A DNA stretch of 64,000 nt from Candidatus Aenigmatarchaeota archaeon (GCA_016198755.1 JACQIB010000004.1:91192-155191), one strand, 5' to 3'. Positions 9,750-46,929 are shown, numbered from the stretch's first letter. The notes: generated from the sequence alone by a model not told the origin. Program-made: numbers and translations.

Positions 9750-9814
9750 ACAGTCACGTTTTCTTCTGTTCCAAAAAAGGACTTGTTGACATAAGTGTTT
9801 ACATATATTCAAAA

Positions 9815-9832
9815 ATGGATTATATAATCCAT
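9815..9832. promoter_or_regulatory. Perfect 18-bp palindrome ATGGATTATATAATCCAT upstream of the wHTH-MNT/HEPN module 1 promoter
   Basis: The reverse complement equals the sequence itself. It lies 11 nt upstream of the TATA box TTTAAATATA (9844-9853), which is centred about 26 nt upstream of the ATG at 9875. Confidence 0.55.
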
Positions 9833-9874
9833 AAATGAATAGATTTAAATATAGCCCGATACAGTATTATATGT

Positions 9875-23411: not shown

Positions 23412-23876
23412 CTATTCTTTTGCAAGCCCAAGCGCTTCAAAAACCCCCACTTTTACCCAACCTAAGTAAGGAATTTCAAAAATAGCCTTTCCATGTATTT
23501 GCGATGCTCTTATATTGTGTTCAAAATTCCCCTGCACAGAATTTGCATCCCCTTTTGTTTCATATGTTCCATCAGGATTAATTGCTATTACCCTGTGTAT
23601 TATTGGATATCTGTAACCTCCGGTGGAAGCATCAAAAACAACAATATCCCCAATAGAAAGTCCGCTTGGGCTGGACACTATAACCATATCCCCTTTGGAA
23701 AACTCAGGAACCATGCTGTTTGAGAAAACAGCAACAACTGGAGTATCTGTATGCAGGGCAAACCCAAGTCCCCAGTTAACTCCAATTGCAATTGCAAACC
23801 CTAAAACAATGTAGAAACCAGTTCCAAAAAGGCTGTTTCTCTCGTTTACTTTAGCCCAAAACTCCCGCAGATTCAT
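23412..23876 (-). CDS. Signal peptidase I, archaeal/ER (Sec11/SipW) type
   Basis: An N-terminal TM is followed by the Ser box FSNSMVPEFSKGDMVIV, then the His box IIHRVI, then TKGDAN. I chose the start at the internal Met (MNLREFWAK) because the divergent promoter TTTATATATA (23931-23940) lies inside the longer ORF. Confidence 0.75.
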   Translation of the reverse strand: MNLREFWAKVNERNSLFGTGFYIVLGFAIAIGVNWGLGFALHTDTPVVAVFSNSMVPEFSKGDMVIVSSPSGLSIGDIVVFDASTGGYRYPIIHRVIAINPDGTYETKGDANSVQGNFEHNIRASQIHGKAIFEIPYLGWVKVGVFEALGLAKE

Positions 23877-23960
23877 AATTAAACACTCTTCCGCAGCCTT
23901 TTTAAGTATATTGGTTTCTCCTACTCTAACTTTATATATAGGCCTGACAATAAAATATTC

Positions 23961-33290: not shown

Positions 33291-34892
33291 TTAACGCTTA
33301 TTCTTCCTGCGTTTTATTACTATTATAAAAAACTCCCTGTAAACTACAACAGATACAAACGCAACAGCAACCCCTATAACAATTATTACAGGAAGTGCTG
33401 GAAGTTCCTCTATTGGCTGCGAAACTATATCCACTCTCTTTTCAATAGTCTCTGTCCCACTCTCATTCTGGATAGTTATCTGCAGTGAGGTTGGGAGTAT
33501 TCCATTTTCACTTGAAGCAATTTCTATTTCCACTTCCCTCTCTTCCCCAGCAGCCAGAGTGAGAGTTATTGGCTTTGTTAAAACAGTTATTCCTTGTTGT
33601 GGTTTAAGCAAAACTGTAATATTTACTGTACTATTCTGGGTGTTCTTTACAAGTATACGAACCTTACCACCTATTATTCCAGTTATCAAAACAGGCGTTT
33701 CAATTCTATTGATATCCAGCCCTCTATAAACCGCGGGTGTAATAGTAAATATTCCCAATGTTCTCACTTCTGTACCGCCGGCAGAAGCCTTGTAAGCAAA
33801 TGGATAGTTCTTTACTCCAGCTTCTTTCGGAGGCTTAAAAAGAACAGAAAAAGCCTGTTCCTGCCCGGGCTTCAGTATCATAGACACGGGCTTTACTTCA
33901 AACCAGCTTTTATTCAATCCTTCTATATCCAGATAAAGCAGAAGTGGAGAGGAAGAGTTGTAAAAGCTTGAGATAGAAACTGTAGTGAAAATAAAGTCCC
34001 CAGCCGAAACCCTTACCTCATCCTGATATTTTGTTATGTTCAGCTTTGGCTGGGTTGGTTGTAATGTTGTTGTGGTTTCTGTAACAGCAGCTCCGCCTCC
34101 TGCCCCTCCAACACCTTTTGATCCCCCAGACTCAGGTGAAGCCACTACAGTAAATGTATCAAATGCTGTTACATAATAGTCAGCTGAGTGTGCAGTGGCA
34201 GAAAGCCTGTAAGAACCTGGAGTTGGGGGAGCTGTAAACTTTACTATCCTTGTGTATGTCTGCCCGTTGCTAAGTGCAACAACATACTGCCCCAGCTCAG
34301 TTGTAAGAGAATAGTTTACTGTAGTGTCAACAGTGCCCGAGGAAAAGCTGCTTACAGTTATATTGGCTGACACTGAACCGAAAGATACTGGAGACTTGTC
34401 TATTACCTCCACAAAAACATCATATACAGGGGAGTTTGCTGTAAAGTTTGTTATATTGCTATCCCAGAGAACGCTGCGCGTTCCATTGTAAATCTGTGTT
34501 GTTATCTGATAGAGGCCAGTGGTATTCGGGATGAAGTTTACAGAACAGTTTTTTAGACTATTGGATGCAACTGTTAAAGAGCAGCTTGTATTCTGGAAAA
34601 CTCCCAGAGTGTTATTCATTGTAAGGTTTATAAAAAGCAAATCTCCAAGGTTTCCTGTATTCTGCACTGTTGCTGTAACATTAATTGAGCTGTTTGCACG
34701 AGGAGAAGGTGTTATGTTCAGGTCTGTAAACCTGCCCACTGCAAGGCTCTGTATGCTTGCATTTGATGTAACAGGCTCTGTTTGCTGGGTAACATATGCT
34801 ACAGTCGATAATAGTGGGAAGAAAACGTATATTAAAAGGAAAAGAACTGCAACAAAAGCAATCTCCCAGTCTCCAGTAGTTTTAGCATGCAT
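33291..34892 (-). CDS. Doubly anchored surface protein with CARDB/NEW3-like beta-sandwich repeats
   Basis: There is an N-terminal TM (IAFVAVLFLLIYVFFPLL) and a C-terminal TM plus basic tail (LPVIIVIGVAVAFVSVVVY...KRRKNKR). Segments such as INVTATVQNTGNLGD and KSWFEVKPVSMILKPGQEQAFSVLF are typical of CARDB/NEW3-type domains. The protein has many sequons. Confidence 0.55.
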   Translation of the reverse strand: MHAKTTGDWEIAFVAVLFLLIYVFFPLLSTVAYVTQQTEPVTSNASIQSLAVGRFTDLNITPSPRANSSINVTATVQNTGNLGDLLFINLTMNNTLGVFQNTSCSLTVASNSLKNCSVNFIPNTTGLYQITTQIYNGTRSVLWDSNITNFTANSPVYDVFVEVIDKSPVSFGSVSANITVSSFSSGTVDTTVNYSLTTELGQYVVALSNGQTYTRIVKFTAPPTPGSYRLSATAHSADYYVTAFDTFTVVASPESGGSKGVGGAGGGAAVTETTTTLQPTQPKLNITKYQDEVRVSAGDFIFTTVSISSFYNSSSPLLLYLDIEGLNKSWFEVKPVSMILKPGQEQAFSVLFKPPKEAGVKNYPFAYKASAGGTEVRTLGIFTITPAVYRGLDINRIETPVLITGIIGGKVRILVKNTQNSTVNITVLLKPQQGITVLTKPITLTLAAGEEREVEIEIASSENGILPTSLQITIQNESGTETIEKRVDIVSQPIEELPALPVIIVIGVAVAFVSVVVYREFFIIVIKRRKNKR

Positions 34893-34930: not shown

Positions 34931-35593
34931 CTACTTTTTCTTTCCAAGCTTTTTCTTCAATTCCTGTTCCTGTTTCTTTAATTCAGCTAACTTTTCAGTA
35001 GCGGATATTTTGCCAGCTTTTTCCCTTCCCAGTTTAACAGTCCTGTATCCGGAAACAAGCTTTCTGCGTTCCAAGAAAACACCTATTGCTGTTGCAACAG
35101 CTCCTATGGCTGTTATAAAACCTGAAAACATCCCCCATTCCCCAACGAAAACGCTTAATGGAGCCTGTACAGAAGCGCCTACAGCAGAGCCTGTTGCAGC
35201 CAAATTAGTTCCTGGAGCATATGAAGCCAAGACCTTTCCTTTATACTGGGCAGGCATAAAAGGCGGGAATCTGGCTGTTGGTGCGGAAAAACAGACTTTC
35301 ACGGCCCTTCCATCGCGTGGCATTGTTTTTGCAGGTACAGCTACTGCTGCTGGCTCTGTTCTTGTAACCATTCCGGAAATATCCCCCTCCACTTTTATAG
35401 AGGCAACAACATCTGTATCAAACGGATTGTAAATATAGTATTGTGTGCAGGTTTCTTTCAGGTCTGGCACTCCAATAGCTTCCTGATCCCATCTCAGCCC
35501 AACACCAATATACTGCGCAGAAGCTAAAGTAGGCAGCAGTGATATGGGTATGGCAAAAGCAAGTAAAAGTAATAATGCCCGTTTATTTCCCAT
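34931..35593 (-). CDS. Secreted beta-rich protein with C-terminal TM anchor and Lys-rich cytoplasmic tail
   Basis: The Sec signal peptide is MGNKRALLLLLAFAIPISLLPTLASA (start at an internal Met; the longer ORF to 35653 would overlap the upstream gene). The C-terminal TM is FSGFITAIGAVATAIGVFL. The tail is KLAELKKQEQELKKKLGKKK. Confidence 0.55.
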   Translation of the reverse strand: MGNKRALLLLLAFAIPISLLPTLASAQYIGVGLRWDQEAIGVPDLKETCTQYYIYNPFDTDVVASIKVEGDISGMVTRTEPAAVAVPAKTMPRDGRAVKVCFSAPTARFPPFMPAQYKGKVLASYAPGTNLAATGSAVGASVQAPLSVFVGEWGMFSGFITAIGAVATAIGVFLERRKLVSGYRTVKLGREKAGKISATEKLAELKKQEQELKKKLGKKK

Positions 35594-35624
35594 ATTTTGA
35601 ACTTTGTTTTCCATATTTATAACC

Positions 35625-36263
35625 TCAACAGGCTGTTTCATTTTCAGTTCCAAGGAAGTTTACTGTATTGTTGTAAATACCAGCGCGCTGGCCTGAAGGT
35701 ATTGTTAACCAAAATCTAAAACTGATAACAGTACCTGCCACGCTGTCATTTCCAATACCATCTATATATTTTTTAGCAGTGTCTATTGCAATGCCTGTGC
35801 CCAAGAACGGGTCGCGCGGGGCAGTAACGCTTGGTGCATTTACTGTATAGTTTGAGGCATTAAAGAGGAAGTTTATGTTTGGTATTGTTGCTGTATCTCC
35901 TCCGGATATATTGGTCAGGTTCGCATTATCATAAATACAGATATCCACTCCCACGTTTGTAGTGGAGGAAATAGATATATTGTACATAGATAGATTTCCG
36001 CCCGCATAGTTTGTTTGATTGTAGTTTCCAGAAGCATTATTGTTGCTTGTTCCAGGGTTTACAGCGCCAAATGCAATTCCGGCAGATAAATTTGTTGTAA
36101 TTCCCAGTGCAACGAACTTGTTTATGCTTACATTAGCTGTTGTGCTCTGTGTATCTGTGGTAGCAAAGCCTGTTAGCTTGCCTCCGAATGAAAACAAAGA
36201 GAGGGAAATTGCCATTAGCAAAAACACTGTTACCGTCAATATTTTAGCCCTGTTGTCTCCCAT
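35625..36263 (-). CDS. Small secreted protein homologous to the C-terminal domain of the giant protein (candidate filament subunit)
   Basis: The signal peptide or anchor is KILTVTVFLLMAISLSLFSF, followed by GGKLTGFATTDTQ. The mature part aligns by eye with the last ~170 aa of the 2708-aa protein: LGITTNLSAGIAFGAVNPGTS vs LGLSTNLSAPIGYDVINPGTT, and FRFWLTIPSGQRAGIYNNTVNF vs FKFRLAIPTGQTPGLYNNSIIF. Confidence 0.6.
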   Translation of the reverse strand: MGDNRAKILTVTVFLLMAISLSLFSFGGKLTGFATTDTQSTTANVSINKFVALGITTNLSAGIAFGAVNPGTSNNNASGNYNQTNYAGGNLSMYNISISSTTNVGVDICIYDNANLTNISGGDTATIPNINFLFNASNYTVNAPSVTAPRDPFLGTGIAIDTAKKYIDGIGNDSVAGTVISFRFWLTIPSGQRAGIYNNTVNFLGTENETAC

Positions 36264-36336
36264 ACTATCACATTATTTTTTAACTATTTAAGCCTTGATT
36301 TTGTCTTATTTTTACTATATGTTTTTATATTCCCTC

Positions 36337-39300
36337 CTAACTGCTTTTGTTAGCAGTGAATATTATTGAGTTGTTATACAGACCTGGAGTCTGCCCCGTT
36401 GGGATTGCAAGGCGGAACTTAAAGTATACAGTTGTTGTGCCAGCTGCAATCTGGCTTTTAACAAGCTGGTCTGTCAAACTCATTGTCTGGAACGGGGAAA
36501 TTGTTTCCAGCGTGTTGTCTGTGCTGGAGTTTAAAAAAGTCATATTGCTAATTCCTATAATGGATGTACCTCCTGTCTTGTTTGTTAAATGATCGTTTGC
36601 CCTCAGCCAGATATCTGCACTGCAGCCTGCATTTGTTAACTGGACAGAAAAAGTTGTAACTCCTGTTCCATTATTGCCTGTTGCGTTTATAGTAGTCCCA
36701 GGATTTATTACATCGTATCCTATTGGAGCGCTCAGATTTGTTGAGAGTCCGAGGGAAATTGAGCAGGCAGCACCTGAAACATTTGCATAAACAGTTCTTG
36801 CACCTGCAGAATAGTTCTCATCTCCTGTAAAATAGCCCGTTACATTATAGTTGCCAGCTGTAGAAAATGGTCCTGTAAGGTTTATTAGAGGAGGGGCTCC
36901 TGAAGTTGCATTTATCCAGCCAGTAAAGTTCGAGTCTATTTTAACTGTCTGCACTGAAAAGTTCAAAGCCTGTGTTGTTGAATTAAGCAAAACAGTTATG
37001 TTCAGTGTATCTGTATCATTATAGTCCCTGTTCCCGTCTGTTCCGTTCAAAAGAACTGTTAGGTTTGTTGCTCCCTTGTTTACAAGGTAATTCAAGCTTG
37101 AGCTCCCAACAGTAAAGTTTGTTGTGGCAGTTGAGTTGCAGATATACTGCCATGTGCTAACATTCAGCCTGAATGTTGTGCTGTTTTCAGGAGTTGTAAC
37201 ATCAAATGAAAGGCTTGAAATGTTTCTATAAAGTTTTACTGTAACACCTGCATCAGTGTTTGAACTGGAGCAGTTAGACTGGCTTGTTGTAGGATAAGTT
37301 ATGGGACTAGAGGGGGATATTGTAAGTGTTATTGTAGGAGTTAAAGTGTTTACTGTAAGAGTGTATGATGCTCCAGTATCATTTGCTGAATAGTTTGCAT
37401 TTGAGCTCATATTAACTTTATAGGAATATGTCCCTGCCCCCAGCTTTATTGTTTCAGTGCTGCTCTTGGAAACTCCATCTCTGAATAAATTGGCTGTGCC
37501 TGCAGTTGAGAAGTTTTTACTTGCCGTGGCTATAATGTTTGCCCCATAGAACATAGCTTTGTTTGAGTTGAAACTAACAGTTCCATTATCCAAAGTCAGG
37601 TCCACAAAATTGCTTGTATTTACAGCCACAGAATATGGTATAACTCTGGTTGTGTTTACCTTAGATGTTGTGTCTGTACCAATCCAGCGATACTGGTAAG
37701 AGCCCCCAGCCAGATCAGAGAAGTTTATAACATACAGGCCATTTATCTGATCACCAGTGCTGCGTGCAACAGTATAGTTTGTTAGGCTGGAATTCAGGTT
37801 CGCTTCAAATAAAACAGTGTCTATACCCCCGTCATCGCTCCAGTTTGCCTGGAATCCATAATTCTTGCCCGGAGCATAGACTGTTGCAGATGGGACAGAA
37901 GTAAAGTTGTTTGTGTAGTTTGGATTATTGTTCGGGGCAACTGCTGTATATGTATAGGTAAACCATGCTGTAGGTGCAATATCAAACATCTGCTGAGTTA
38001 TGACCATTATACTAAAGTTGTATTGTGTTGTTGCATTTGCAAGACCATAAAAATCAATTCCTGATCCAGCAGGAGCTGAATTTCCAGATAAGTTGGAAGC
38101 ATTAAACAAATGCTGTTCAGGGCTGAGCAAATCAGAGTCCTGCACAACAATCTGCCCCTGCTGGACTTGAGAATGGTTAATCCATGGCCTTATCTGTCCC
38201 ACTCCAGCTGTTGAGCCTTTTACAGGAATATCTATCCAGCTGTTCCTTACTGCTGGGTTGTCTGGAGTGTAAATATATAGAGCTTGTGTAGAGGCGTTCT
38301 GGGCAGCGTTTGTGGTATTACTGAAATTTGTAAAATATCCTATGGTTTTCAGTTGCGTGGAAGAATCATTTGGATATGTATAAATCAAGTCGGCAGTAAA
38401 CCAAGTGTTTGACTGAGCTTGCGTGCGTGCCCAGAGAGTTACATTATGTCTATTATCACCGGTTGTTGTAGAGTAAAACTCTCCAGATCCATCTGAACCG
38501 TTCACAATAATCCACTTCGGAGAGATAAAATCTGTATCAGCAACGCCTATATTATTTCCGTACTGGAGATTTGAACCATTCACAGTTATATTCATTATCC
38601 CACCAGCTGTTCCATTCCCCTGCGTATAAATTGTAAGATAAGCGCTCCTCACTGCAACACTACTTTCAGGAATATACATGTCAAACAGGGAAGACCAGTT
38701 TGTGTTTGCAGCTATAGAGAAAGTCCTGTTACCAAAGAAGCGTACATGTTTCAGTTGTGTTGTGGAACTGGAATCATAACTGTAAGTTACTGTAGCTTTA
38801 ATCCAAGCATCGTCCAGTCTGTTTGTATAAGTTCTAAAAGTAACATTATAATAGTTGTTACCTGTGCCCGCATTATAAAACCCATTTACATAATTTTGTG
38901 TGTTGTTTGAGGCATTAAATGCCCAGTGTATTGGAGCACGGGTAGAGGTTTGCACAGATCTGTTCAGCGAATAATAAAGAGCAGTTTGGTTTATGTAGAC
39001 ATCAGCCTTCCCTTGTGCTGTCCCACCAACATTTGTTTCTCCATAAACTTCTACAAAGGCGTTCCTTACTGTTATCTGGTTTTCTGGAATGTAAAGATTG
39101 AAATCCATTGTAGTGAAGTTAGAGTTTGCAGTTATGTTTGCAGTGCGGTTTACAAAATAAGTTATTGTTTTCAAATGTGTTTCTGATATTATATCATATT
39201 CATAAGTTATGTAGGCTTTTGCCCAAGTGTTGAAAAATTGCTTTGCATCAGATTTTATTTCCAGTCCGAATTTGTTATCTCCTTGAGTTATACCATAAAG

Positions 39301-42300
39301 ACCGCTATAAGGGGTTGTTGTGTTAGAGGCATTGAACCTGTAGATTGAAGGGAAAACCTGATCTGCATCCATTATACCTACTTTGCTTGCATAATCCAAC
39401 GGAGTTCCGTTTAATAGCACTCGTAGGTTGGCGCCTCCTCCCGCATCCCCTTCTGTATAAACTTCTATCCACGCACTTTTAACAGAAACTCCTCTCTCTG
39501 GTATATATACAGAAAAGTTGCTTGTGAACACACCACTGGCATCAGTCATGTTGCTGCTGTTAATAAACCATTCTATTGTTTTTATTGAGTGATTGCCTAC
39601 GAGAGGATTTATTATATATGGTATTACTCCAGTATCATTTATCTGCTGCATTGTGTCGTTTGCAATCCATCTATATTGATAAGTTCCGTTTGTCAAGCCA
39701 GTAAAGTTTATTGTATATATTGCCTGTGTTAAATTCCCGCCTGCAAGCTTTGTGAGTGTAAAGTTCTTCAGGCTTGAATTCAGGTTTGTCTCAAATGTTA
39801 CATTAACAATTTCAGCAACCTCAGTTGAGATATTGGTTGAAAAGCCATAGTTTCCAGTGCTGTGTATTGTATCTAAATCTGGAATGCTGGTTGCATTGTT
39901 TATGAAAACTGGAGTTCTGTTTCCTACAGAATATGGTATAACACCTGTAGTATTCACATAATTATCCGTATCATTGGCAATCCATCTGTACTGGTAAGAA
40001 CCTGTAGATATATTTGTAAAGTTTATAAGATACAGGCCATTGAAGCTGTCGCCTGCAGTCCTGCCAACAGTAAAGTTTTTCAGGCTGCTGTTGAAATTAG
40101 ACTCGAAAAATACAATCTGCACCCCAAAGTTGTCTGTCCAGTTTGTCTGGAAGCCCCAGTTTTTGTTCAGCTGATATACTGTACCGCTTGGCTGAGATGT
40201 AACATTGTTCTGGAATTGTGGAGGAGGGGCTGGAGAGTATGTATATGTAAACCAACCAACAGGAGCTATATTGAACATTTGCTGAGTTATGACCATTATA
40301 CTAAAGTTGTATTGTGTTGTAGCGTTTCCGAGTGCATAAAAGTCATTTCCTGTTGTTGCAGAAGCATTGAAAAGCCCCTGAAACGGGCTTAGTACAGTGT
40401 CTGTATCAGGTATAACAGTCTGTCCCTGATTTATCTGGGAGTGGTTAATCCAAATCCTTACCTGACCTGCCCCTGCTGTGCTCCCATGAACATAAGTATC
40501 TACCCAGCTGTTTCTTACTGTTGGATTATCTGGAGTGTAAATGTATAGAGCTTGTGTAGAGGCGTTCTGGGCAGCGTTTGTTGTGTTGCTCTGGTTTATG
40601 AAGTAACCTATTGTTTTCAGCTGGCTGGTAGAGTCATTTGCATAGGTATAAACAAGTCCTGCCCTGAACCAGCTATCTTTCTGCGCCTGCGTCCTCACCC
40701 ACACGCTTACATTATGTCTGTTGCTACCTGTTGTTGTACTGTAAAGCTCTCCAAATCCATCTGAAGCGTTCACAGAAACCCATATCGGGGCAATAATATC
40801 TGTATCAGTAACAGCAATATTGCTTGAATACTGCAGGTTAGACTGGTTTATGCTTATGTTCATTGTACCTCCAGCAGTGCCGTTTCCATGAGTATAAAAG
40901 TCAAGATAGGCATTCCTGATCGTAACAGAGGTTTCCGGAATAAAAATATCAAAGAGAGAGGACCAGTTTGTGTTTGCAGCAATAGCAAAAGTGCTCCTGT
41001 TACCAAAGAACTTTACACTATTTAACTGTGTGGTTGAATTTGCAGCATAAGAATATGTTGCAGTAACCTTTATCCAAACATTGTCCATGCGGTTTGTATA
41101 GGATCTGACTGTTATGTTATATAGGTTATTACCTGTGCCTGCAGTATAAAGTCCGTTTGCATAGCTTAAAGTTGAATTAGAGGCGTTAAACATAAGGAAT
41201 GTTGGGGCGCGCGGCGTTGTCTGCAGGCTCCTATTCAATCCATAATCCACTCCTGTACCGTTTATGTACACATCAGTCTTTCCTTTTGTTGTTCCTGAAA
41301 CAGCTGGCTCTGTATAAACCTCTATAAAAGAATTTCTGACCTTTACCTGATCCTCGGGGATATAGAGATTAAAATTATAGTTTGTGAAATTAGAGTTTGC
41401 GCTAACATTGGCAGTCCTGTTTACAAAATAAGTTACTGTTTTCAGTTGCGTTTCAGAGTTTGTATCATACTCATAAGTTACATAAGCTTTTATCCAGCCG
41501 TTGAAGGAGTTCTTTGCAAACCCATCCACTTCAATCCCAAAATTATTTTCCCCCTGAGCTATACTGTAGAGGCCGTTAAAGTTTGCGCTTGCATTCGAGG
41601 CATTGAATCTCCATATATTTGGAAAAAACAAATCAGCATCACCAATCACAGCTTTGCTTGCATACTGCAGAGGAGTTCCGTTAAGAAAAATCACAAAATA
41701 GTCTCCTGCAGACTCTGAACCCTCTCTATAAACCTCTATCCACGCACTTTTAACAGAAACTCCTCTCTCTGGTATATAGATGCTGAAATTCGAAATAGCA
41801 TCACCTGTAATGGTTGTCATGTTTGAGCTATTTACAAACCACTCTATTGTCTTTATTGAGGCAGCTCCAGGTATGGGATTCATTGAATAAGGTATAACTC
41901 CTGTTGTGTTTACACCGCTTGCACTGTCGTTTACTATCCATCTGTATTGGTAGGTTCCGTTTGTCAGGCCAGTAAGACTAGTGAAGTTTATTGTATAGGT
42001 TGCAAAGGTTGTGTTTCCGCCTGCAACAGCAGATATAGTAAAGTTTTTCAGGGTTGCATTCAGGTTTGTTTCGAAAGTTACGTTGATAATTTCTGTTCCA
42101 AATGTAGTTATGTTTGTTGAAAATCCATAGTTTGCTGTAGCATTTATTGGGAAGTTAGAAGGCATGGAGCTTGCGTTGTTAACAAAAATTAGTTGAGAGT
42201 TTGCTATAGAAAATGGTATAATGCCGGTTGTGTTTATATTGTTTGCAGAATCATTTGCTATCCAGCGATATTGGTAGTTTCCGGCAGAGAGCGTTGAACC

Positions 42301-44463
42301 AGTGAAGTTTATGAAATAAAATTTCTGAGTTGCATTTCCACCAGCAACAGCAGGTATAGTAAAGTTTTTCAGGGTCGCATTCAGGTTTGTTTCGAAAGTT
42401 ACATTGTTTATGGAAACGGATTCTGTGGATACGTTTGTTGAGAATGTGTAGTTTGTAAGTGTGTTTATGCCCACTCCGCTTGCTTGTGAACTCGTGTTGC
42501 TTACAAAGCGGGGCTTTGGAACATCAGAATAAGCTCCTGTGGCTACAAGCTTTACTGATTTGAGCGGACATGCAACATTAGACTGGCATTTTATGTTTAC
42601 TGAAAATGTTTTTGGAGTGTCTGTTGACAGGTTGTATACTCCATTGGTGTTTGTTGTTGCATTGTGCCTTATCATGTAGTTGAAAATCTCAACGCCTGCA
42701 ACAAAAGTATAGTTTGTGTAGCTTGTGTTTTCATCGTATGGTGTACTGTTCATTGAAACAGTTATTGCTGTTGTAAGAGCTGACACATCCAAAAGTCCCT
42801 CTACCTGCAGGAAAGCTGATTTCACAACAAAATCATCGTCTATAGGCTTTATTGTAAATGTAGAGTTCCACCAGCTCCCAGCAGAAACAGTTGCTGTGGA
42901 AGAGTTCACATAATATTCTTCAGTATCCATATAGTTAGCGGCATCTGAAGTATATGTTATAATAACAGAGGCTGACATTGCTTCGCATGTATCGCCTGCT
43001 CCGCATTTCACACCGAAAGCAAATCCATATGTGCTATTGTCTGTTATTCCATACAGTCCCTGCACGCTTCCTGTTACGCTGGATGCGTTTGCAAGTACAA
43101 CAAATCCATAGCTTGGGGTTGTACCTGCTATAACTGGGGATAAAATGTTCGTTCCATTAAGCCTGAGGTCAAGTGTGTTGTCAGTGGTTGCAGCGCTCCC
43201 AGGATAAACACCTGTAAGTTTTATGTACGATGATTTTACAGCAATGTTTGTGCCTGAAAGGGCAACAGTAAAGGTCGAATTCCACCATGTGCTTGTTCCA
43301 ACACTTACATTTGTGGAGTTGATAAAAACCTCAACTGTTTTTGTTTTCGCAGGTGCTGTATACTGATATGTTACTTTCATTACAGTTCCAAGTGCTCCTG
43401 TAGGCGCTCCGGCTTTGAGTCCATAGAGAAAGGTAGATGGGGTAGAGTTGAGCATATATGTCAGGTTGTTGCTTGCATTCCTTACAATCCTTATTGTGGA
43501 AGCTTCCCCATTTCCAGCACTTACAGGCGCAGGCCCAAGATTTGTAGAATTCTGTGATACGTTAAGTACCCTATCTACTGTTCCAGTTTCGTCATTTGAT
43601 CCCCAGGTTTCAAACCATGCATTTTTCACAACAGCAGCATTATCAGAGAGTGCAGCTGAAAATGTGGAATTCCACCATACACCGGCTCCTGTCTGCGGTC
43701 CGCTTGCATTCACGAAAAAATCAACTGTACGTACTTCTGTTGCTGCAAATGCTGGTATAGATGTTAATGGGATAAACAACATTATAAAAATAATTGCCAG
43801 AAATGTTGGCTTCTTTTTTCGCAATACAATTCCAAGTGGAATAAAAGCAAGAAGAGGGAGTAAACTGAAAAGCCAGTTTAGGATTGATTTTGGTTCAGTA
43901 TGAGTTTGGGATAGCGGGAACTGGGGCGCAGCATTTTCAGATACAACTTTTGTATTATCTTCCTCAGGACCGGTTCCTGGAGGATCGTATGTATAGGTTA
44001 TTATAGCGCGTGCAGAGACCGAATTGCAAAGGTCGCCGTTGCACTGCACCCCGAATTTCAGCCTTCTTGAACTGCTGTTTGTTATATTGTAAAGGTTATC
44101 GTAGTTACCCGATGAATTATCCAGAATAGTAAAATATTCAGTTTCTCCGGAATTTGTGAAAGAGTATGTATCAGCAGCTCCTCCGTTCTGCGCTATTTTT
44201 ATATTGCTTGCCGCTGTCCCAGCCTTCCCAAAAGAGCCCGAAACTTCTATAAAGGCTGAAATAACCTGAGGAGTTGGATCAGGGAGCTGCACATCATATG
44301 TGCTGTTAAACCAGTTTCCATTTGGCATTTGCGAATCAGACTGGTTTATGAAAAATACAACTGTTTTTGTGTTGAAAAGATAGCCTGCTTCTGCTACTGG
44401 AACAGAGAGTAAGAAAATCAGGGCAAATAAGAGCGGCAGAGCCAGCAAAGAGAGAGCTTTCAT
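36337..44463 (-). CDS. Giant (2708 aa) secreted modular surface protein, extremely rich in N-X-S/T sequons
   Basis: It is a single uninterrupted ORF with the Sec signal peptide MKALSLLALPLLFALIFLLSVPVAEA. It contains 12 copies of a ~130-190 aa module (starts KT[VI]x[FWY]F[VI]N, ends [VI]TYxY). It also contains 5 copies of a ~105 aa module (NVTFETNLNxxLKNFT ... GxYQYRWIAND), about 3 Ig-like modules with GDxNY, and a C-terminal ~170-aa domain shared with the downstream gene. Confidence 0.85.
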   Translation of the reverse strand: MKALSLLALPLLFALIFLLSVPVAEAGYLFNTKTVVFFINQSDSQMPNGNWFNSTYDVQLPDPTPQVISAFIEVSGSFGKAGTAASNIKIAQNGGAADTYSFTNSGETEYFTILDNSSGNYDNLYNITNSSSRRLKFGVQCNGDLCNSVSARAIITYTYDPPGTGPEEDNTKVVSENAAPQFPLSQTHTEPKSILNWLFSLLPLLAFIPLGIVLRKKKPTFLAIIFIMLFIPLTSIPAFAATEVRTVDFFVNASGPQTGAGVWWNSTFSAALSDNAAVVKNAWFETWGSNDETGTVDRVLNVSQNSTNLGPAPVSAGNGEASTIRIVRNASNNLTYMLNSTPSTFLYGLKAGAPTGALGTVMKVTYQYTAPAKTKTVEVFINSTNVSVGTSTWWNSTFTVALSGTNIAVKSSYIKLTGVYPGSAATTDNTLDLRLNGTNILSPVIAGTTPSYGFVVLANASSVTGSVQGLYGITDNSTYGFAFGVKCGAGDTCEAMSASVIITYTSDAANYMDTEEYYVNSSTATVSAGSWWNSTFTIKPIDDDFVVKSAFLQVEGLLDVSALTTAITVSMNSTPYDENTSYTNYTFVAGVEIFNYMIRHNATTNTNGVYNLSTDTPKTFSVNIKCQSNVACPLKSVKLVATGAYSDVPKPRFVSNTSSQASGVGINTLTNYTFSTNVSTESVSINNVTFETNLNATLKNFTIPAVAGGNATQKFYFINFTGSTLSAGNYQYRWIANDSANNINTTGIIPFSIANSQLIFVNNASSMPSNFPINATANYGFSTNITTFGTEIINVTFETNLNATLKNFTISAVAGGNTTFATYTINFTSLTGLTNGTYQYRWIVNDSASGVNTTGVIPYSMNPIPGAASIKTIEWFVNSSNMTTITGDAISNFSIYIPERGVSVKSAWIEVYREGSESAGDYFVIFLNGTPLQYASKAVIGDADLFFPNIWRFNASNASANFNGLYSIAQGENNFGIEVDGFAKNSFNGWIKAYVTYEYDTNSETQLKTVTYFVNRTANVSANSNFTNYNFNLYIPEDQVKVRNSFIEVYTEPAVSGTTKGKTDVYINGTGVDYGLNRSLQTTPRAPTFLMFNASNSTLSYANGLYTAGTGNNLYNITVRSYTNRMDNVWIKVTATYSYAANSTTQLNSVKFFGNRSTFAIAANTNWSSLFDIFIPETSVTIRNAYLDFYTHGNGTAGGTMNISINQSNLQYSSNIAVTDTDIIAPIWVSVNASDGFGELYSTTTGSNRHNVSVWVRTQAQKDSWFRAGLVYTYANDSTSQLKTIGYFINQSNTTNAAQNASTQALYIYTPDNPTVRNSWVDTYVHGSTAGAGQVRIWINHSQINQGQTVIPDTDTVLSPFQGLFNASATTGNDFYALGNATTQYNFSIMVITQQMFNIAPVGWFTYTYSPAPPPQFQNNVTSQPSGTVYQLNKNWGFQTNWTDNFGVQIVFFESNFNSSLKNFTVGRTAGDSFNGLYLINFTNISTGSYQYRWIANDTDNYVNTTGVIPYSVGNRTPVFINNATSIPDLDTIHSTGNYGFSTNISTEVAEIVNVTFETNLNSSLKNFTLTKLAGGNLTQAIYTINFTGLTNGTYQYRWIANDTMQQINDTGVIPYIINPLVGNHSIKTIEWFINSSNMTDASGVFTSNFSVYIPERGVSVKSAWIEVYTEGDAGGGANLRVLLNGTPLDYASKVGIMDADQVFPSIYRFNASNTTTPYSGLYGITQGDNKFGLEIKSDAKQFFNTWAKAYITYEYDIISETHLKTITYFVNRTANITANSNFTTMDFNLYIPENQITVRNAFVEVYGETNVGGTAQGKADVYINQTALYYSLNRSVQTSTRAPIHWAFNASNNTQNYVNGFYNAGTGNNYYNVTFRTYTNRLDDAWIKATVTYSYDSSSTTQLKHVRFFGNRTFSIAANTNWSSLFDMYIPESSVAVRSAYLTIYTQGNGTAGGIMNITVNGSNLQYGNNIGVADTDFISPKWIIVNGSDGSGEFYSTTTGDNRHNVTLWARTQAQSNTWFTADLIYTYPNDSSTQLKTIGYFTNFSNTTNAAQNASTQALYIYTPDNPAVRNSWIDIPVKGSTAGVGQIRPWINHSQVQQGQIVVQDSDLLSPEQHLFNASNLSGNSAPAGSGIDFYGLANATTQYNFSIMVITQQMFDIAPTAWFTYTYTAVAPNNNPNYTNNFTSVPSATVYAPGKNYGFQANWSDDGGIDTVLFEANLNSSLTNYTVARSTGDQINGLYVINFSDLAGGSYQYRWIGTDTTSKVNTTRVIPYSVAVNTSNFVDLTLDNGTVSFNSNKAMFYGANIIATASKNFSTAGTANLFRDGVSKSSTETIKLGAGTYSYKVNMSSNANYSANDTGASYTLTVNTLTPTITLTISPSSPITYPTTSQSNCSSSNTDAGVTVKLYRNISSLSFDVTTPENSTTFRLNVSTWQYICNSTATTNFTVGSSSLNYLVNKGATNLTVLLNGTDGNRDYNDTDTLNITVLLNSTTQALNFSVQTVKIDSNFTGWINATSGAPPLINLTGPFSTAGNYNVTGYFTGDENYSAGARTVYANVSGAACSISLGLSTNLSAPIGYDVINPGTTINATGNNGTGVTTFSVQLTNAGCSADIWLRANDHLTNKTGGTSIIGISNMTFLNSSTDNTLETISPFQTMSLTDQLVKSQIAAGTTTVYFKFRLAIPTGQTPGLYNNSIIFTANKSS
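37918..42516 (-). repeat. Tandem in-frame duplication of a ~2.28-kb (about 763-770 aa) six-module super-repeat inside the giant gene
   Basis: Copy 1 is about 40228-42516 (aa ~650-1412) and copy 2 about 37918-40227 (aa ~1413-2182). Long identical DNA runs occur at offsets of 2268-2289 nt. For example, tgctgagttatgaccattatactaaagttgtattgtgttgt occurs at 37991 and 40280, and cacgcacttttaacagaaactcctctctctggtatata at 39470 and 41741. Confidence 0.85.
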
Positions 44464-44519
44464 GGGTTTAATTTAGTGCGTAAGCATATATTTAATGGTT
44501 ATTTGTGCCTTTTGGAGGT

Positions 44520-45698
44520 TTAGCTCTGGAAAATCACATTATCTATCAGGAAGCTTGAACCCGGGAACTGGTTGCAGCTGTCTGTGGCTGTATAAAACCG
44601 CATTAACTTACCCTTGTCTATAATAGTATTGGAATTTGCTGTTATATTATACCATCCACCTCCGACATCAATTGTGGATGTTTTATACTCCCCCGGAGTT
44701 GAAATAATATTCCCAGCCGAATCTATCTCAAACGGAAGGCTTGTATCAGAATCCCCATTTGCAAATAAAACCTCCACACCGAAAGCCCAGTTGCAGGTTG
44801 CCCCATTTGTAAAGTTAGGTAGGTAATTAAAGCTTACATTGAATAATCCTGTTCCTGTGGCTTCCAGCTTATCAGAAAAAACCCTTTGGGGTGCCCCAAG
44901 GTATTTTATACGCAGTGCTGTTGCAGACTGGTAACCAGATTCCAGAGGATTATATTCCCAGTTTATCTCATCTGCAGCACCGTTTATATCCTGCATGAGC
45001 GTCCAGTTCTCGGGCAGGCTTGAATTGCCTGCACGCACGGTTTCCAAATCATAGTTAGATATTCTTGACGCATCTTTCTGTGCACTAACATCACCCCCAT
45101 CAGCTGAGAGGCTTGGTATAGTCCAGCGTACTCCGTCTTTTTTTCCAACATTGTTCTTATCTAACAGAGCTTTCCTAATATTCTTCTTATTGCTGTCCAA
45201 TACAACAGAATAATGATATTCCGGTGGTAGCCCAGGAAGATCTGTATTGATTGGTATGTTTTTATAATGATAATCAGATTTTACAGTTACATGTTTTTTA
45301 TAGTTGGTTTGCTCGCTGTTCAATATACTTTCAGTAACGTATATTGGCGATGTTTGGAAGCGAAAAACCCATGAAGAATCCCCTGGCGGGGCATCAAAAG
45401 AAACAGTTTCCTTCCCATGTATTTTTGCATTAGCAGGTGCTGATATTACTTCAGCTCCCTTTCCAAAGTTTAATTTAGTTGTTTTTGCAAATAGTCCTGG
45501 ATTTTTTGCAATAACTGTCCTATCCCATACTATTGGTTTTTCATAGACAAACCCAGAAACCAGCGAATATGTGCTTGTTGTAGAAACCTCACCTGTTTTT
45601 GCTGGCGCAAGACCGGTGTTAACAGAAACATTATAAAGCCCAAGGGCTAGAAAAAGTACTGTTATGACTGCAAAAGCCAAAAGAGGTATCTTTCCCAT
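44520..45698 (-). CDS. Secreted protein with C-terminal jelly-roll/CBM-like domain (paralog A)
   Basis: The N-terminal signal anchor is IPLLAFAVITVLFLALGL. The protein is colinear with the adjacent 394-aa paralog. The shared C-terminus is CNWAFGVEV.FA.G.SDTSLPFEIDSAGNI.STPGEY ... SCNQFPGSS.L.DNV.F. Confidence 0.6.
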   Translation of the reverse strand: MGKIPLLAFAVITVLFLALGLYNVSVNTGLAPAKTGEVSTTSTYSLVSGFVYEKPIVWDRTVIAKNPGLFAKTTKLNFGKGAEVISAPANAKIHGKETVSFDAPPGDSSWVFRFQTSPIYVTESILNSEQTNYKKHVTVKSDYHYKNIPINTDLPGLPPEYHYSVVLDSNKKNIRKALLDKNNVGKKDGVRWTIPSLSADGGDVSAQKDASRISNYDLETVRAGNSSLPENWTLMQDINGAADEINWEYNPLESGYQSATALRIKYLGAPQRVFSDKLEATGTGLFNVSFNYLPNFTNGATCNWAFGVEVLFANGDSDTSLPFEIDSAGNIISTPGEYKTSTIDVGGGWYNITANSNTIIDKGKLMRFYTATDSCNQFPGSSFLIDNVIFQS

Positions 45699-45744: not shown

Positions 45745-46929
45745 TTAGGCTTCAAACACAACGTTATCCATTAAGACGCTTGATCCAGGGAACTGATTGC
45801 AGCTCTCAGTGTCTATATAAAATTGCATAGACTTATCAGGATCTATCAGTACATTTGACTTTGCATCCACATGGTACCAGCCATCAGTCAGCGGGGTTAC
45901 AACTGTATTATACTCCCCTGGGGTTGAAACAATATTCCCGGCTGAATCTATCTCAAACGGAAGGCTTGTATCAGATTCTCCTGTTGCAAAGAAAACTTCC
46001 ACACCGAAAGCCCAGTTGCAGATTGCTCCGCTCTCAAACTGGGGATTAAAATCAAAGCTTATATTGAAAGTTCCGGTGCCCAGTGTAGATAGATTATCAG
46101 AATATATCCTGTATGTGCCCAAGTGCTTTACTCTTAGTGAGCTGGAAGACTGCCAGCCAGCTTCCAAGGGATCATATCCCCAGTCAATTGCATCAGTTCT
46201 GGCAGTCGGATCCTGTGTCAAAGTCCATCCATCAGGTTTCTTATCATTGTTAGCTCTGCCTGTCTCAAACTTGTAATTCGAAATCCTTGAAGGCACTTTC
46301 TGTGCTGCAACACCAAAGCTTTCAGTTGATAAATGGGCAACTGTCCAGCGAGTAGAATCTTTGTTCCCATCCCCATCATTATCATACAAAACCTTCCTTG
46401 TCTCCTGCCCTGTGCTCTGCGGAGTAATAGAATAAACATGGGTTGCAGGGAGATTTGGTAAAGAAGTTAAAGCAGGTATATTTGTATAATGGTAATTTGA
46501 GGAAACAGTAACAATTTTATTGTAGTTTGCTGGATCAGAGTTTAGAACCTGTTCAGTAACAGTTATGGGAGCTGTTTCAAACCTTATAATCCATACAGAA
46601 TCTCCCGAAGGAGCCTTTATTACAAACTTTTTCTTTCCTTCCATTTTTACCCCATCAGGAACACTAACAACCTCAGCTCCCTTGCCAAGCTTTATTTTAA
46701 CCTTCTTATTCTTTTCTGTTGGATTGTGTACATATACTGTCCTGTCCCATGTAATTGGCTGGTTCAAAACAAAACCTGAAACAAGGCTGTCTGTTTGCGT
46801 GAAAGTAACCTTATTATCCTCAACCTCTGCTGCTTCTATATCATCATCAGCCAGAACAGCTGTAGAATAAGAAGCAAAAAATAGTGCAAATACAGAAACT
46901 AAAAGAAGTACACCAATAGCATGCTTCAT
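45745..46929 (-). CDS. Secreted protein with C-terminal jelly-roll/CBM-like domain (paralog B)
   Basis: The signal peptide is MKHAIGVLLLVSVFALFFASYSTAVLA. The C-terminal part is about 85-90 percent identical at DNA level to paralog A over about 100 nt (45921-46025 vs 44701-44800). Confidence 0.6.
   Translation of the reverse strand: MKHAIGVLLLVSVFALFFASYSTAVLADDDIEAAEVEDNKVTFTQTDSLVSGFVLNQPITWDRTVYVHNPTEKNKKVKIKLGKGAEVVSVPDGVKMEGKKKFVIKAPSGDSVWIIRFETAPITVTEQVLNSDPANYNKIVTVSSNYHYTNIPALTSLPNLPATHVYSITPQSTGQETRKVLYDNDGDGNKDSTRWTVAHLSTESFGVAAQKVPSRISNYKFETGRANNDKKPDGWTLTQDPTARTDAIDWGYDPLEAGWQSSSSLRVKHLGTYRIYSDNLSTLGTGTFNISFDFNPQFESGAICNWAFGVEVFFATGESDTSLPFEIDSAGNIVSTPGEYNTVVTPLTDGWYHVDAKSNVLIDPDKSMQFYIDTESCNQFPGSSVLMDNVVFEA

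Follow-up and report, generated by a model that had tools for sequence, protein, structure and literature searches.

A conserved four-gene cassette of DPANN archaea with a predicted chaperone-pilus-like organization and a giant candidate tip protein

A giant surface protein of a Candidatus Aenigmatarchaeota archaeon ends in the same domain as the small protein encoded next to it, and the two genes belong to a four-gene cassette, recovered from loci labelled as DPANN or as unclassified archaea, that looks like an undescribed, usher-less relative of bacterial chaperone-usher pili with a huge candidate adhesin at the tip. The cassette lies on the minus strand, from 44463 to 33291, of a stretch of 64,000 nucleotides (GCA_016198755.1 JACQIB010000004.1:91192-155191), referred to here as the window. 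The reading preferred here, which is about as likely to be right as wrong, is a fibre or stalk joined by donor strands and comprising a tip, subunits and a membrane anchor, plus a membrane-tethered chaperone; strand exchange itself is inferred. No published description of such a system was found.

Homology between the giant and small proteins

The original prediction, made from sequence alone, was that the C-terminal ~170 aa of the giant protein are homologous to the whole of the mature 212-aa protein. The observation of homology holds. The reading frames are where they had been placed, with the small protein (212 aa) at 35625-36263 (-) and the giant protein (2708 aa) at 36337-44463 (-). BLASTP of the small protein against the last 287 aa of the giant gives 51/156 identities (33%) and E=3e-15 with compositional adjustment, aligning residues 51-203 of the small protein with residues about 2569-2702 of the giant, so that the lack of a significant alignment score, which had been named beforehand as fatal to the idea, did not arise. 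A tblastn search with either copy against all six frames of the window finds only the other copy, at E of about 7e-13, the next hits having E>2. HMMs built without any window sequence confirm the match: the giant C-terminus scores 71.1 bits (E=5e-24) against the small-protein, or pilin-type, family and 108.7 bits against a ‘tip-type’ family, while 200 shuffles of the same C-terminus score 5 bits or less.

One refinement is needed, as the homology does not cover the whole mature small protein. Its first ~16 residues (TTDTQSTTANVSINKF) and its C-terminal tail LGTENETAC lie outside both the BLAST and the HMM alignments. The by-eye match of ‘ANVS’ in one protein to ‘ANVS’ in the other is therefore not supported as homologous, because the HMM alignment of the giant starts after that motif.

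The two copies are old paralogues rather than a local duplication, each being closer to its own subfamily in other genomes than to its neighbour. The pilin-type subfamily comprises small proteins with a conserved N-terminal strand, whereas the tip-type domain almost always sits at the extreme C-terminus of a large, variable, sequon-rich protein. The family as a whole has 491 clusters at 50% identity, with no Pfam or NCBIfam family; most members are ~190-210 aa, and a recurrent class of large proteins carries the domain at the C-terminus.

The giant protein and its C-terminal domain

The giant protein, the candidate tip adhesin, has a signal peptide, about 12 copies of a ~135-aa repeat, about five copies of a ~105-aa repeat, Ig-like domains and a C-terminal tip-type domain, and it carries 165 N-glycosylation sequons. 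It has no C-terminal membrane anchor of its own, and searches of Pfam, NCBIfam and PDB sequences gave no match above threshold. A TATA-box-like TTAAATATAT at 44486-44495 (-), ~27 nt upstream of its ATG, was read from the sequence, and any promoter role is an inference.

The tip-type pilin-like domain (36340-36807, minus strand; aa ~2553-2708) lacks the subunits' N-terminal strand motif and their conserved Cys pair. Its alignment to the pilin-type HMM starts at position 47, after the SNVTI positions, and tip domains in general align to that HMM only from position ~26-48. The giant and 25 other large proteins carry the tip-type domain, all but one (P0104) at the extreme C-terminus, and the N-terminal motif is present in 1/26, although comparison of the junctions shows that some tip proteins have an N-[FV]-T-[IV]-like strand just before the domain.

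The small protein

The small secreted protein, the candidate major subunit, contains 13 sequons. Its predicted Sec signal peptide (36162-36263, minus strand; aa 1-34) ends in GKLTGFA, and cleavage after TGFA is inferred. The motif [ILM][TS]G[YF]A recurs at this position in many subunits and in fourth-gene proteins. The next segment (36114-36161, minus strand; aa 35-50, TTDTQSTTANVSINKF) is the N-terminal extension of the mature protein, outside the region homologous to the giant, and is the candidate donor strand, a role that is inferred. It contains the family motif [ST]N[VA][ST][IVL], which is found near the N-terminus in 12/19 locus subunits, 5/11 fourth-gene proteins and 0/181 other ORFs of 150 aa or more, but in only ~43% of small family members by the strict pattern. 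A pilin-like beta-sandwich domain (35655-36113, minus strand; aa 51-203), ending in IPSGQRAGIYNNTVNF, is followed by a tail ending in a conserved Cys. C80 and C183 are invariant in the alignment examined (A4). A TATA-box-like TTAAATA at 36285-36291 (-), centred ~25 nt upstream of the ATG, may be a separate promoter for a leaderless mRNA, although this too is inferred from the sequence alone.

The AlphaFold2 model of the small protein has pLDDT 88.6 and pTM 0.82 and is all-beta. Chaperone-usher pilins, including Csu, CfaB, CupE, Caf1, FimA, PapA and SafA, make up 39 of its top 50 Foldseek matches in the PDB, with probability reaching 0.99 and a TM-score of about 0.5 against chaperone-bound forms. 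The matches are nevertheless weak, with E from 5e-3 to 0.2, none below 1e-3, and TM-scores of 0.3-0.5, and the very top hits are the complete N-terminal beta-sandwich of GH123 glycosidases. In this monomer model residues 1-23 of the mature subunit show no DSSP strand although pLDDT is ~95 for residues 11-30, which neither shows nor excludes a donor strand.

The resemblance of the C-terminal IP.GQ..G.YNN..F motif to the last strand of SCPU/Csu pilins, also part of the original prediction, remains only a resemblance. No PF05229 hit was obtained for the window proteins or for 100 family members, four of which give weak hits to DUF4402 (best 0.0031). An hhalign comparison with an alignment of CsuA/B, eight plasmid SCPU proteins and four CsuE-like C-domains aligns only the last ~22-25 residues, with E=0.03 and probability below 2%. 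The same motif also matches the N-terminal beta-sandwich of GH123 glycosidases and a plant beta-N-acetylhexosaminidase (8k2h) of the kind that, with GH123 enzymes, tops the Foldseek list.

The third and fourth genes

The third gene (34931-35614, minus strand), overlooked in the original prediction and here called P240, encodes 227 aa with a signal peptide, one PapD-like Ig domain (aa ~35-158), a C-terminal transmembrane helix and a basic cytoplasmic tail. Its start codon lies 10 nt after the stop of the small gene. P240 contains no sequons and its homologues have 0-2, in contrast to the subunit and the giant. It is the candidate membrane-tethered chaperone. Its AlphaFold2 model has pLDDT 85, and 92-97 in the domain, and Foldseek matches it to the chaperones of the systems whose pilins match the subunit (FaeE 1.9e-7, PapD 3.8e-6, CsuC 8.4e-6). 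The predicted fold is clearly PapD-like, but such a fold is generic, as MSP/VAP and CEP192 PapD-like domains score as well as the chaperones. Furthermore, P240 has one domain and not two, no PapD_N or PapD_C domain is found by Pfam, hhalign against Csu-type chaperones gives E=0.58, and no basic residue is among its invariant or near-invariant columns, so that nothing equivalent to the chaperones' Arg8/Lys112 is evident.

The fourth gene (33291-34892, minus strand), separated from P240 by 38 nt, encodes 533 aa comprising a signal peptide, a subunit-like N-terminal strand (EPVTSNASIQSLAV), Ig-like domains, a Gly-rich linker, an ASH/PapD-like-clan domain, a C-terminal transmembrane helix and a KR tail. 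It gives only weak Pfam hits, to Cep192_D3, MSP and CARDB. It has no pilin domain, sharing with the subunits only the N-terminal strand motif, and is the candidate membrane anchor or terminator. The enrichment of this motif in fourth-gene proteins (5/11 against 0/181) gives Fisher p=2e-7, although related loci are not independent.

Conservation of the cassette

Fourteen genome loci were recovered, all labelled DPANN or unclassified archaeon and spanning several DPANN lineages. In all 13 related loci whose flanks could be read the order is large tip protein, then 1-3 small subunits, then a ~200-230-aa membrane-anchored protein; a membrane-anchored fourth protein follows in 10 of them and in the window. 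By BLAST clustering, with counts that include the window, the pilin-like domain is in 14 loci, P240 in 13 (a homologue adjacent to subunit genes in 12 related loci plus the window) and the fourth-gene family in nine, with positional equivalents of the fourth gene in one further locus (L007) and in the window. Of the 10 positional equivalents with a C-terminal transmembrane helix outside the window, nine form one family, and hhalign links the window's fourth protein to that family with probability 80% and E=1.3e-5 over 98 columns. Other neighbours are housekeeping genes. No usher-like Pfam hit was found in the window neighbours or in the locus neighbours that were scanned, and archaea have no outer membrane.

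A proposed mode of assembly

The original prediction compared the pair of genes to a tip adhesin and the major subunit of chaperone-usher or sortase pili, and this interpretation is partly supported. The pattern of a large protein ending in the subunit's domain next to a small subunit gene recurs in every related locus with readable flanks, and chaperone-usher structures dominate the fold matches of the subunit, albeit weakly, and recur among those of P240.

What the analysis establishes is the homology of the two domains, their division into two ancient subfamilies that differ in the N-terminal strand, the conserved gene order with a predicted PapD-fold membrane protein, and the sharing of the N-terminal strand motif by a fourth protein without a pilin domain. 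The remainder of the model is inference, including expression, export, glycosylation, an open groove and strand exchange. In this view all four proteins would be exported by Sec and cut by the housekeeping signal peptidase I, and the subunits would be N-glycosylated. The tip domain would offer an acceptor groove, and each subunit would insert its N-terminal strand (..T-S-N-V-T-I..) into the groove of the previously added, more distal unit, the fourth protein donating the last strand and tying the structure to the membrane through its C-terminal helix. The unglycosylated P240 would be held at the membrane by its own helix, because there is no periplasm to retain a soluble chaperone, and would bind newly exported subunits by beta-strand augmentation until they are handed over. 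The giant, repeat-rich, heavily glycosylated distal part would mediate attachment, plausibly to a host cell. No filament is known to have been seen on these organisms, but the modules are complementary in a way that matches chaperone-usher polarity: tip domains without the motif (all but one of 26), subunits with both motif and domain, and fourth-gene proteins with the motif, a membrane anchor and no pilin domain.

Alternative explanations

A docking complex in place of a polymer is possible but less likely. Here the shared domain would be a complete beta-sandwich serving as a cell-attachment module, and P240, the fourth protein or both would bind it and hold the giant adhesin and the small glycoprotein on the membrane. 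This accords with the absence of an anchor on the giant, with P240 and the fourth protein being the only membrane-anchored members, with PapD/MSP-like domains being general peptide- or strand-binding modules, with the GH123 beta-sandwiches among the best fold matches of the subunit, and with a monomer model that is confident throughout. It does not explain why small proteins made of little more than the docking domain are always present, often in 2-3 paralogues, why the fourth protein shares the subunits' N-terminal strand motif without the domain, or why the anciently separated tip-type and pilin-type subfamilies differ exactly at the N-terminal strand and the Cys pair. Rather more doubtful is a surface layer, in which the small glycoprotein would form a two-dimensional lattice into which the giant inserts through its C-terminal domain, with the two membrane-anchored proteins as stalks. 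The small protein is secreted, rich in sequons and probably separately promoted, anchored partners are encoded alongside it, and the S-layer proteins of most DPANN lineages are not known to have been identified. However, the fold matches are to fibre subunits and their chaperones and not to known S-layer proteins, subunits of 160 mature residues are small for archaeal S-layer proteins, and an anchor protein with only the N-terminal strand fits linear strand donation better than a lattice.

The TasA/camelysin-like or sortase-like fibre of the original prediction, with a SipW-type peptidase processing the subunits or a sortase-like enzyme joining them, is not supported and is very unlikely. The small residue-aromatic-Ala arrangement of TGFA loosely resembles the TasA site, but it sits where an ordinary signal peptidase I site would be, and many family members lack it. 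The SipW-like peptidase gene in the window (23412-23966) is the ordinary archaeal signal peptidase I, all archaeal enzymes being of this type; it best matches the generic archaeal model TIGR02228 (1.5e-24) and only weakly matches SipW (32 bits against a cut-off of 190). It lies 12 kb away, and no peptidase homologue lies in the flanks of any of the 14 related loci. No Peptidase_M73, TasA/camelysin or SipW-type signal-peptide hit was found in Pfam or NCBIfam, and no TasA structure is among the top 50 fold matches. Nor was any sortase, archaeosortase or sorting motif seen in the cassette, or a sortase-like family among the neighbours, and the subunits end in TAC with no transmembrane helix. The features of type IV pilins and archaellins are not seen either: the sequence shows an ordinary tripartite signal peptide, with the hydrophobic core before the predicted TGFA|T site, and not a class III signal peptide with a short basic leader, cleavage before the hydrophobic helix and the helix retained in the mature pilin, and the mature model is all-beta. 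Chance resemblance or a recent duplication without functional meaning can be set aside: both proteins are rich in N, S and T, which can inflate scores, but the composition-adjusted E-value, the shuffles, the subfamily relationships and the conserved arrangement refute it.

Implications

Fibres joined by donor-strand complementation are now known in archaea (threads, bundling pili and cannulae), and for threads the assembly pathway and fibre polarity are stated to be unknown (PMC9715654). The cassette offers, in one conserved operon, a candidate chaperone, a candidate membrane anchor, the subunits and a tip, and thereby opens polarity, priming and anchoring to direct test. It is also a concrete candidate for the attachment apparatus of DPANN archaea, whose host-contact machinery is, as far as is known, largely uncharacterized. 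If the fold similarities reflect common descent, the cassette bears on the origin of the chaperone-usher pathway. A bolder and unlikely, though not excluded, possibility is that DPANN archaea possess a true, evolutionarily related counterpart of that pathway working without an usher, in which a membrane-tethered, single-domain PapD-like chaperone primes glycosylated subunits at the cytoplasmic membrane for donor-strand exchange under a giant (up to >3000 aa) tip adhesin, an anchor protein donating the last strand. The fibre would then be the organelle with which these ultra-small episymbionts attach to their hosts, and chaperone-assisted strand exchange would be older or more widely transferred than the diderm bacterial envelope. 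Should the strand-exchange model fail, the cassette is still a widespread, unannotated DPANN surface-protein system.

Relation to known systems

The closest systems are the bacterial chaperone-usher pili, especially the archaic (sigma) class such as Acinetobacter Csu (CsuA/B, CsuC, CsuD, CsuE) and Pseudomonas CupE. In common are a small, putatively Sec-exported subunit with a predicted Ig-like fold whose best structural matches, though weak, include CsuA/B, CupE1, CfaB, Caf1 and FimA, a tip protein with a subunit-like domain at its C-terminus behind a (here putative) receptor-binding part, as in CsuE, FimH and PapG, a neighbouring gene with a predicted PapD-like chaperone fold, a C-terminal ..P.GQ..G.Y.[ND]T..V/F motif, and the distribution of the N-terminal strand. 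The archaeal cassette differs in occurring in cells with a single membrane, with no usher and no periplasm, in its single-domain, membrane-anchored chaperone-like protein without an invariant basic residue, in the lack of significant sequence similarity to SCPU pilins or Csu-type chaperones, in the inferred heavy N-glycosylation of its subunits, in its membrane-anchored protein carrying only the N-terminal strand, and in a tip of up to 3212 aa, against ~300 aa in bacteria.

The thread of Sulfolobus acidocaldarius (Saci_0406, with putative cap Saci_0405) is an archaeal fibre whose subunit has a signal-peptidase-I-type signal peptide, is heavily N-glycosylated and is joined to the next by donation of an N-terminal beta-strand; a related protein encoded next to it was proposed as a cap, and no usher is known (PMC9715654). 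The signal peptide type, the sequons and the N-terminal strand are general features shared with the present subunit. No PDB sequence hit was obtained, and no thread entry is among the top 50 Foldseek matches. Threads were described as conserved among some Crenarchaea, while this family was found only in the DPANN or unclassified archaeal loci described earlier. No assembly factor is known for threads, whereas the cassette has a predicted PapD-fold protein and a membrane anchor, and the putative thread cap has the strand but no acceptor site, whereas here the large tip has the domain but not the strand.

TasA, the archaeal bundling pili (AbpA, Tat-dependent haloarchaeal pili) and the Pyrodictium cannulae (CanA) are extracellular fibres assembled by donor-strand complementation without an usher, and cannulae and TasA polymerize without a chaperone. 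These systems lack a PapD-like partner and a giant tip protein, and the present family shows no sequence or fold match to TasA/camelysin in the searches made. Finally, the MSP/VAP, ASH and CEP192/HYDIN PapD-like domains match P240 as well as the pilus chaperones do, and the fourth-gene proteins give weak Pfam hits to the same clan, but those domains are cytoplasmic eukaryotic modules, whereas P240 is predicted to be extracellular and membrane-anchored and is always encoded next to pilin-like genes.

Homology between the giant protein and its small neighbour

The two open reading frames lie where they had been placed, with the small protein of 212 aa encoded at 35625-36263 (-) and the giant protein of 2708 aa at 36337-44463 (-). 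BLASTP with compositional adjustment aligns residues 51-203 of the small protein with the last ~155 residues of the giant at 33% identity (E=3e-15), and these are the only two copies of the domain in the whole 64-kb window. As both proteins are rich in N, S and T, the test was repeated with profile HMMs that contain no window sequence. The C-terminus of the giant scores 71 bits (E=5e-24) against the small-protein family and 109 bits against a family of C-terminal domains from other large proteins, whereas 200 shuffles of the same C-terminus score at most 5 bits. The homology noticed in the original prediction is therefore confirmed. It does not, however, extend over the whole mature small protein as had been proposed, because the first ~16 residues of the mature protein and its C-terminal tail fall outside the homologous region.

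The remainder of the giant has no recognizable family, giving only sub-threshold hits to carbohydrate-binding-type domains. Comparison of the protein with itself in segments shows that it consists of about 12 copies of a ~135-aa repeat and about five copies of a ~105-aa repeat arranged in a super-repeat. After a first signal peptide and one ~135-aa domain, at aa ~196-241 (window ~43740-43880, -), the reading frame contains a transmembrane segment (ILNWLFSLLPLLAFIPLGIVL), then RKKK, then a second signal-peptide-like segment (PTFLAIIFIMLFIPLTSIPAFA|ATEV), all in frame. This could represent two genes fused in one frame, an assembly error or a polyprotein cut by signal peptidase into a small membrane protein plus the secreted giant. 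Directly upstream of the giant on the same strand are genes for three secreted proteins of 392, 394 and 515 aa (44520-45698, 45745-46929 and 46995-48542, -), which share a C-terminal domain of ~130 aa (..CNWAFGVEV..SDTSLPFEIDSAGNI..GWY..) and have no Pfam match. No homologs of these were found in the flanks of the 14 related loci described later in the text.

The family and its two subfamilies

Pfam, NCBIfam and PDB sequence searches gave no family above threshold for the small protein, the giant, the product of the third gene (‘P240’) or the fourth protein, and the PDB hits obtained with a profile of the fourth-gene family are artefacts of its Gly-rich linker. An exhaustive HMMER search of 1.84 billion representatives found 491 clusters of the shared domain. 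Most are secreted proteins of 190-210 aa. A recurrent class of large proteins, 404 to 2163 aa among the listed hits, carries the domain at the C-terminus. A further class of pilin-type proteins of ~290 aa (family members P0022, P0043 and P0048, and a gene at 9632-10498 of related locus L017) has ~100 aa of cytoplasmic coiled coil and a transmembrane segment in front of the TG.A motif and the pilin part, and could be an uncleaved membrane-anchored subunit or a subunit with an unusually long presequence. A scan of one genome per species, made with a 10-sequence alignment, recovered 14 loci, and all come from Woese-, Pace-, Aenigm- or Nanoarchaeota or from unclassified archaeal MAGs. The window itself is archaeal, encoding L10e, a diphthamide synthesis protein, DUF1512 and an archaeal signal peptidase I, and it is probably DPANN, an inference that rests only on where the family occurs.

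The family divides into two old subfamilies. The pilin-type members are the small proteins, and these share a consensus N-terminal segment ..T-[ST]-N-[VA]-[ST]-[IV].. directly after the signal peptide, a core ..AI..S.NLS.GI.FG.. ... VD.CI ... RFWLD.P.GQ.AG.YNNT..F, and a co-conserved pair of cysteines, one in VDICI and one at the C-terminal residue (window 35628-35654 and ~36024-36026, -, and the family alignment). The tip-type domains start at the ..AI..LS.. strand, have W or Y in place of the first Cys and end in G..P. In 25 of the 26 large proteins examined, the tip-type domain is the last thing in the protein. Both pilin-type cysteines are absent from tip-type domains, but some of these, including that of the giant, have a different pair (..AACSIS.. 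and ..AGCSAD..); either pair may form intra- or inter-subunit disulphides. The small protein of the window scores 171 bits as pilin-type and 92 bits as tip-type. The domain of the giant scores 109 bits as tip-type and 71 bits as pilin-type, and its alignment to the pilin HMM begins at position 47, after the SNVTI positions. The pair is therefore not a recent local duplication.

A conserved gene cassette

In every related locus whose flanks are intact, the genes are found on one strand in the same order. A large protein of 405-3212 aa ending in the tip-type domain is followed by one to three pilin-type genes encoding ~200 aa each, by a P240 homolog of 193-266 aa lying next to or between the pilin genes and, in 11 of the 14 loci counting the window, by a protein of 391-642 aa with a C-terminal transmembrane helix. 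By BLAST clustering, and again counting the window, the pilin-like domain is present in 14 loci, P240 in 13 and the fourth-gene family in nine, with positional equivalents of the last in related locus L007 and in the window. The fourth protein of the window (33291-34892, -) shares a domain of ~100 residues with that family (hhalign probability 80%, E=1.3e-5), together with the overall layout of signal peptide, variable part, Gly-rich linker, Ig-like domains, transmembrane helix and KR tail. One family member of 698 aa (P0063) is a pilin-type protein fused in frame to a protein resembling the fourth gene of loci L011 and L012, including what looks like that gene's own signal peptide. It may be a read-through of adjacent genes or a real fusion, but either way it links the two families.

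The four genes of the window are tightly spaced, with 73 nt between the giant and the small gene, 10 nt between the small gene and P240, and 38 nt between P240 and the fourth gene. TATA-like boxes lie ~25-27 nt upstream of the ATGs of both the giant and the small gene, from which separate promoters are inferred. Other recurrent neighbours in the related loci are housekeeping genes, namely an Obg-like GTPase, Kae1, and a small metallopeptidase-like protein with a DUF192 protein. The last two, a ‘putative phage metallopeptidase’ (PF18894) of ~130 aa and an adjacent DUF192 gene product of ~115 aa, recur 0.5-4 kb downstream of the cassette in six related loci (L010, L011, L012, L013, L014 and L016). 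This is probably lineage synteny, although a small secreted-protein peptidase near a putative fibre cassette may be of some interest.

Predicted folds

With a 100-sequence alignment, AlphaFold2 gives a confident model of the mature small protein (pLDDT 88.6, pTM 0.82). Foldseek against the PDB finds nothing below E=1e-3 for this model, but 39 of the top 50 hits are chaperone-usher pilins (Csu, CfaB, CupE, Caf1, FimA, PapA, SafA and HdaB), with probability reaching 0.99 and TM-scores of about 0.5 against chaperone-bound forms. The matches are weak, and the remainder are mostly the N-terminal beta-sandwich of GH123 glycosidases, complete sandwiches that rank first. The model shows no DSSP strand in mature residues 1-23 despite high confidence for residues 11-30, which is uninformative either way. 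At the level of sequence, hhalign of the family against CsuA/B alone and against an SCPU alignment was not significant. The C-terminal motif to which the original prediction had drawn attention is the only part that aligns with SCPU pilins (E=0.03, probability below 2%), and it also matches a plant beta-N-acetylhexosaminidase (8k2h) of the kind that, with GH123 enzymes, tops the Foldseek list. The Cys pattern of tip-type domains (CSIS ... GCSAD) had been expected to align with the disulphide of CsuA/B, but hhalign aligned the C-terminal motif alone.

The model of P240 has a pLDDT of 85 overall and 92-97 in the domain, and is a nine-strand beta-sandwich (residues 39-157) followed by a long helix that spans the membrane and continues into the basic tail. 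Foldseek finds 74 PDB matches below 1e-3, headed by the pilus chaperones FaeE (1.9e-7), PapD (3.8e-6), CsuC (8.4e-6), DraB, Caf1M, SafB and CfaA. The PapD-like fold is widespread, however, and MSP/VAP domains and the PapD-like domains of CEP192 and HYDIN score equally well. P240 shows no significant sequence similarity to Csu-type chaperones by hhalign, it has one domain rather than two, and no basic residue is among its invariant columns. The cytoplasmic tail after the transmembrane helix (window 34931-35130, -) is conserved across lineages in the P240 homologs (consensus ..RKPK.ER..EKL.KL..) and is modelled as one long helix, which hints at a cytoplasmic partner. The two neighbouring genes thus resemble, in their predicted products, the two partner folds of one bacterial system, and this coincidence in a conserved cassette is the main reason to take a pilus reading seriously.

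Distribution of the N-terminal motif and of sequons

In chaperone-usher pili, the tip adhesin has an acceptor groove but no donor strand, the rod subunits have both, and assembly ends with a subunit that donates a strand. For CsuA/B, a self-complemented construct with the strand moved to the C-terminus has been made (PDB 6fm5). The same distribution is seen here for the N-terminal motif [ST]N[VA][ST][IVL], counted as a regular expression near the N-terminus or, for the tip proteins, within ~30 aa before the domain. The motif is present in 12/19 small proteins in the loci and the window, in 47/110 small family members overall, in 1/26 tip proteins, in 5/11 fourth-gene proteins and in 0/181 other ORFs of 150 aa or more in the same DNA. 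The fourth-gene proteins otherwise have no pilin domain. Comparison with the background gives a Fisher p=2e-7, but related loci are not independent. Fourth-gene proteins without the exact motif have similar strings, such as SPSSVTI and ETSIKV. In the motif, the Asn and the Ser/Thr two residues later would face one side of a strand and the hydrophobic residues the other, from which it is inferred that a glycan on that Asn is compatible with a strand lying in a groove.

P240 has no N-glycosylation sequon and its homologs have 0-2, whereas the 212-aa subunit has 13, the giant 165 and the fourth protein 20. This fits a protein whose surface must stay free for transient binding rather than a permanently exposed structural part.

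Signal peptidase and cleavage motifs

The interpretation placed on the homology by the original prediction is only partly supported. It had noted that the segment after the signal peptide of the small protein loosely resembles the motif of SipW-type (TasA/camelysin) signal peptides and that a SipW/Sec11-type peptidase gene lies in the window, and had drawn an analogy with chaperone-usher and sortase pili. The peptidase, at 23412-23966 (-), is the generic archaeal signal peptidase I, scoring 86.6 bits against TIGR02228 (cut-off 51.85) and 32.5 bits against the SipW model (cut-off 190). It lies 12 kb from the cassette, and no homolog appears in the flanks of the 14 loci. It is divergently adjacent to, and overlaps by a few bases, a gene (23961-26060, +) for a secreted protein of 699 aa with a CARDB domain and a Thr-rich mucin-like stretch. 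No TasA/camelysin hit and no SipW-type signal-peptide hit was obtained in the Pfam and NCBIfam searches, and nothing sortase-like was found.

The TGFA string is a lineage-specific form of the region just before the predicted cleavage site (TGFA|TT in the small protein, which would leave aa 35-212 as the mature form), recurring in many subunits and fourth-gene proteins but absent from others. The giant tip proteins of L013 (1726-9783) and L016 (2648-9754) begin with a cytoplasmic segment (MVFKRYIHRNGKKFGPYYYESYRD..) and a transmembrane helix, and about 25 residues after the helix comes FFTGFTTEGS, which repeats the TGF motif seen at the predicted cleavage sites of the subunits. The motif may therefore be more than a generic signal-peptidase site.

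Proposed mechanism

The homology, the two subfamilies, the gene order and the distribution of the motif come directly from the sequence comparisons, but every step of the mechanism that we propose is inferred, and we consider it about as likely as not. In this view, the four proteins would be exported by Sec and cut by the housekeeping signal peptidase I, and the subunits would be glycosylated. P240 would be tethered to the membrane because there is no periplasm to hold a soluble chaperone, and would hold new subunits by strand augmentation. The tip domain would be complemented by the N-terminal strand of the first subunit (residues ~41-50, TANVSINKF, in the small protein, which would lie beside the C-terminal strand of the neighbour, YNNTVNF in the small protein), further subunits would add at the base, and the fourth protein would donate the last strand and anchor the structure through its transmembrane helix. 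The key property, an incomplete fold completed in trans, is thus itself an inference, and the product may be either a long homopolymer or a short stalk of defined length. An adhesive role for the distal part of the giant, possibly toward a host cell, is plausible but unsupported by any direct evidence.

P240 was also considered as the strand-donating base, but its invariant GVG strand begins only ~4 residues after the predicted cleavage site and is part of the folded domain, so this role was rejected. Of the alternatives to a strand-joined fibre, the main ones are a docking complex in which nothing polymerizes, which we regard as unlikely, and an S-layer-type assembly, which seems less likely still.

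Comparison with known systems

In the literature searched, nothing relevant was found on chaperone-usher-like, PapD-like, donor-strand or SCPU (spore coat protein U) systems in DPANN or other archaea. The archaeal strand-complemented fibres already known are threads, bundling pili and cannulae. For threads, the assembly pathway and the polarity are explicitly stated to be unknown, whereas cannulae are described as polymerizing without a chaperone, and no report of a PapD-like partner was found for any of the three. If the proposed mechanism holds, the cassette would encode a further strand-complemented surface fibre, in a lineage where no such system has been reported, with the difference that it possesses an unusual, membrane-tethered chaperone-like component and a giant tip.
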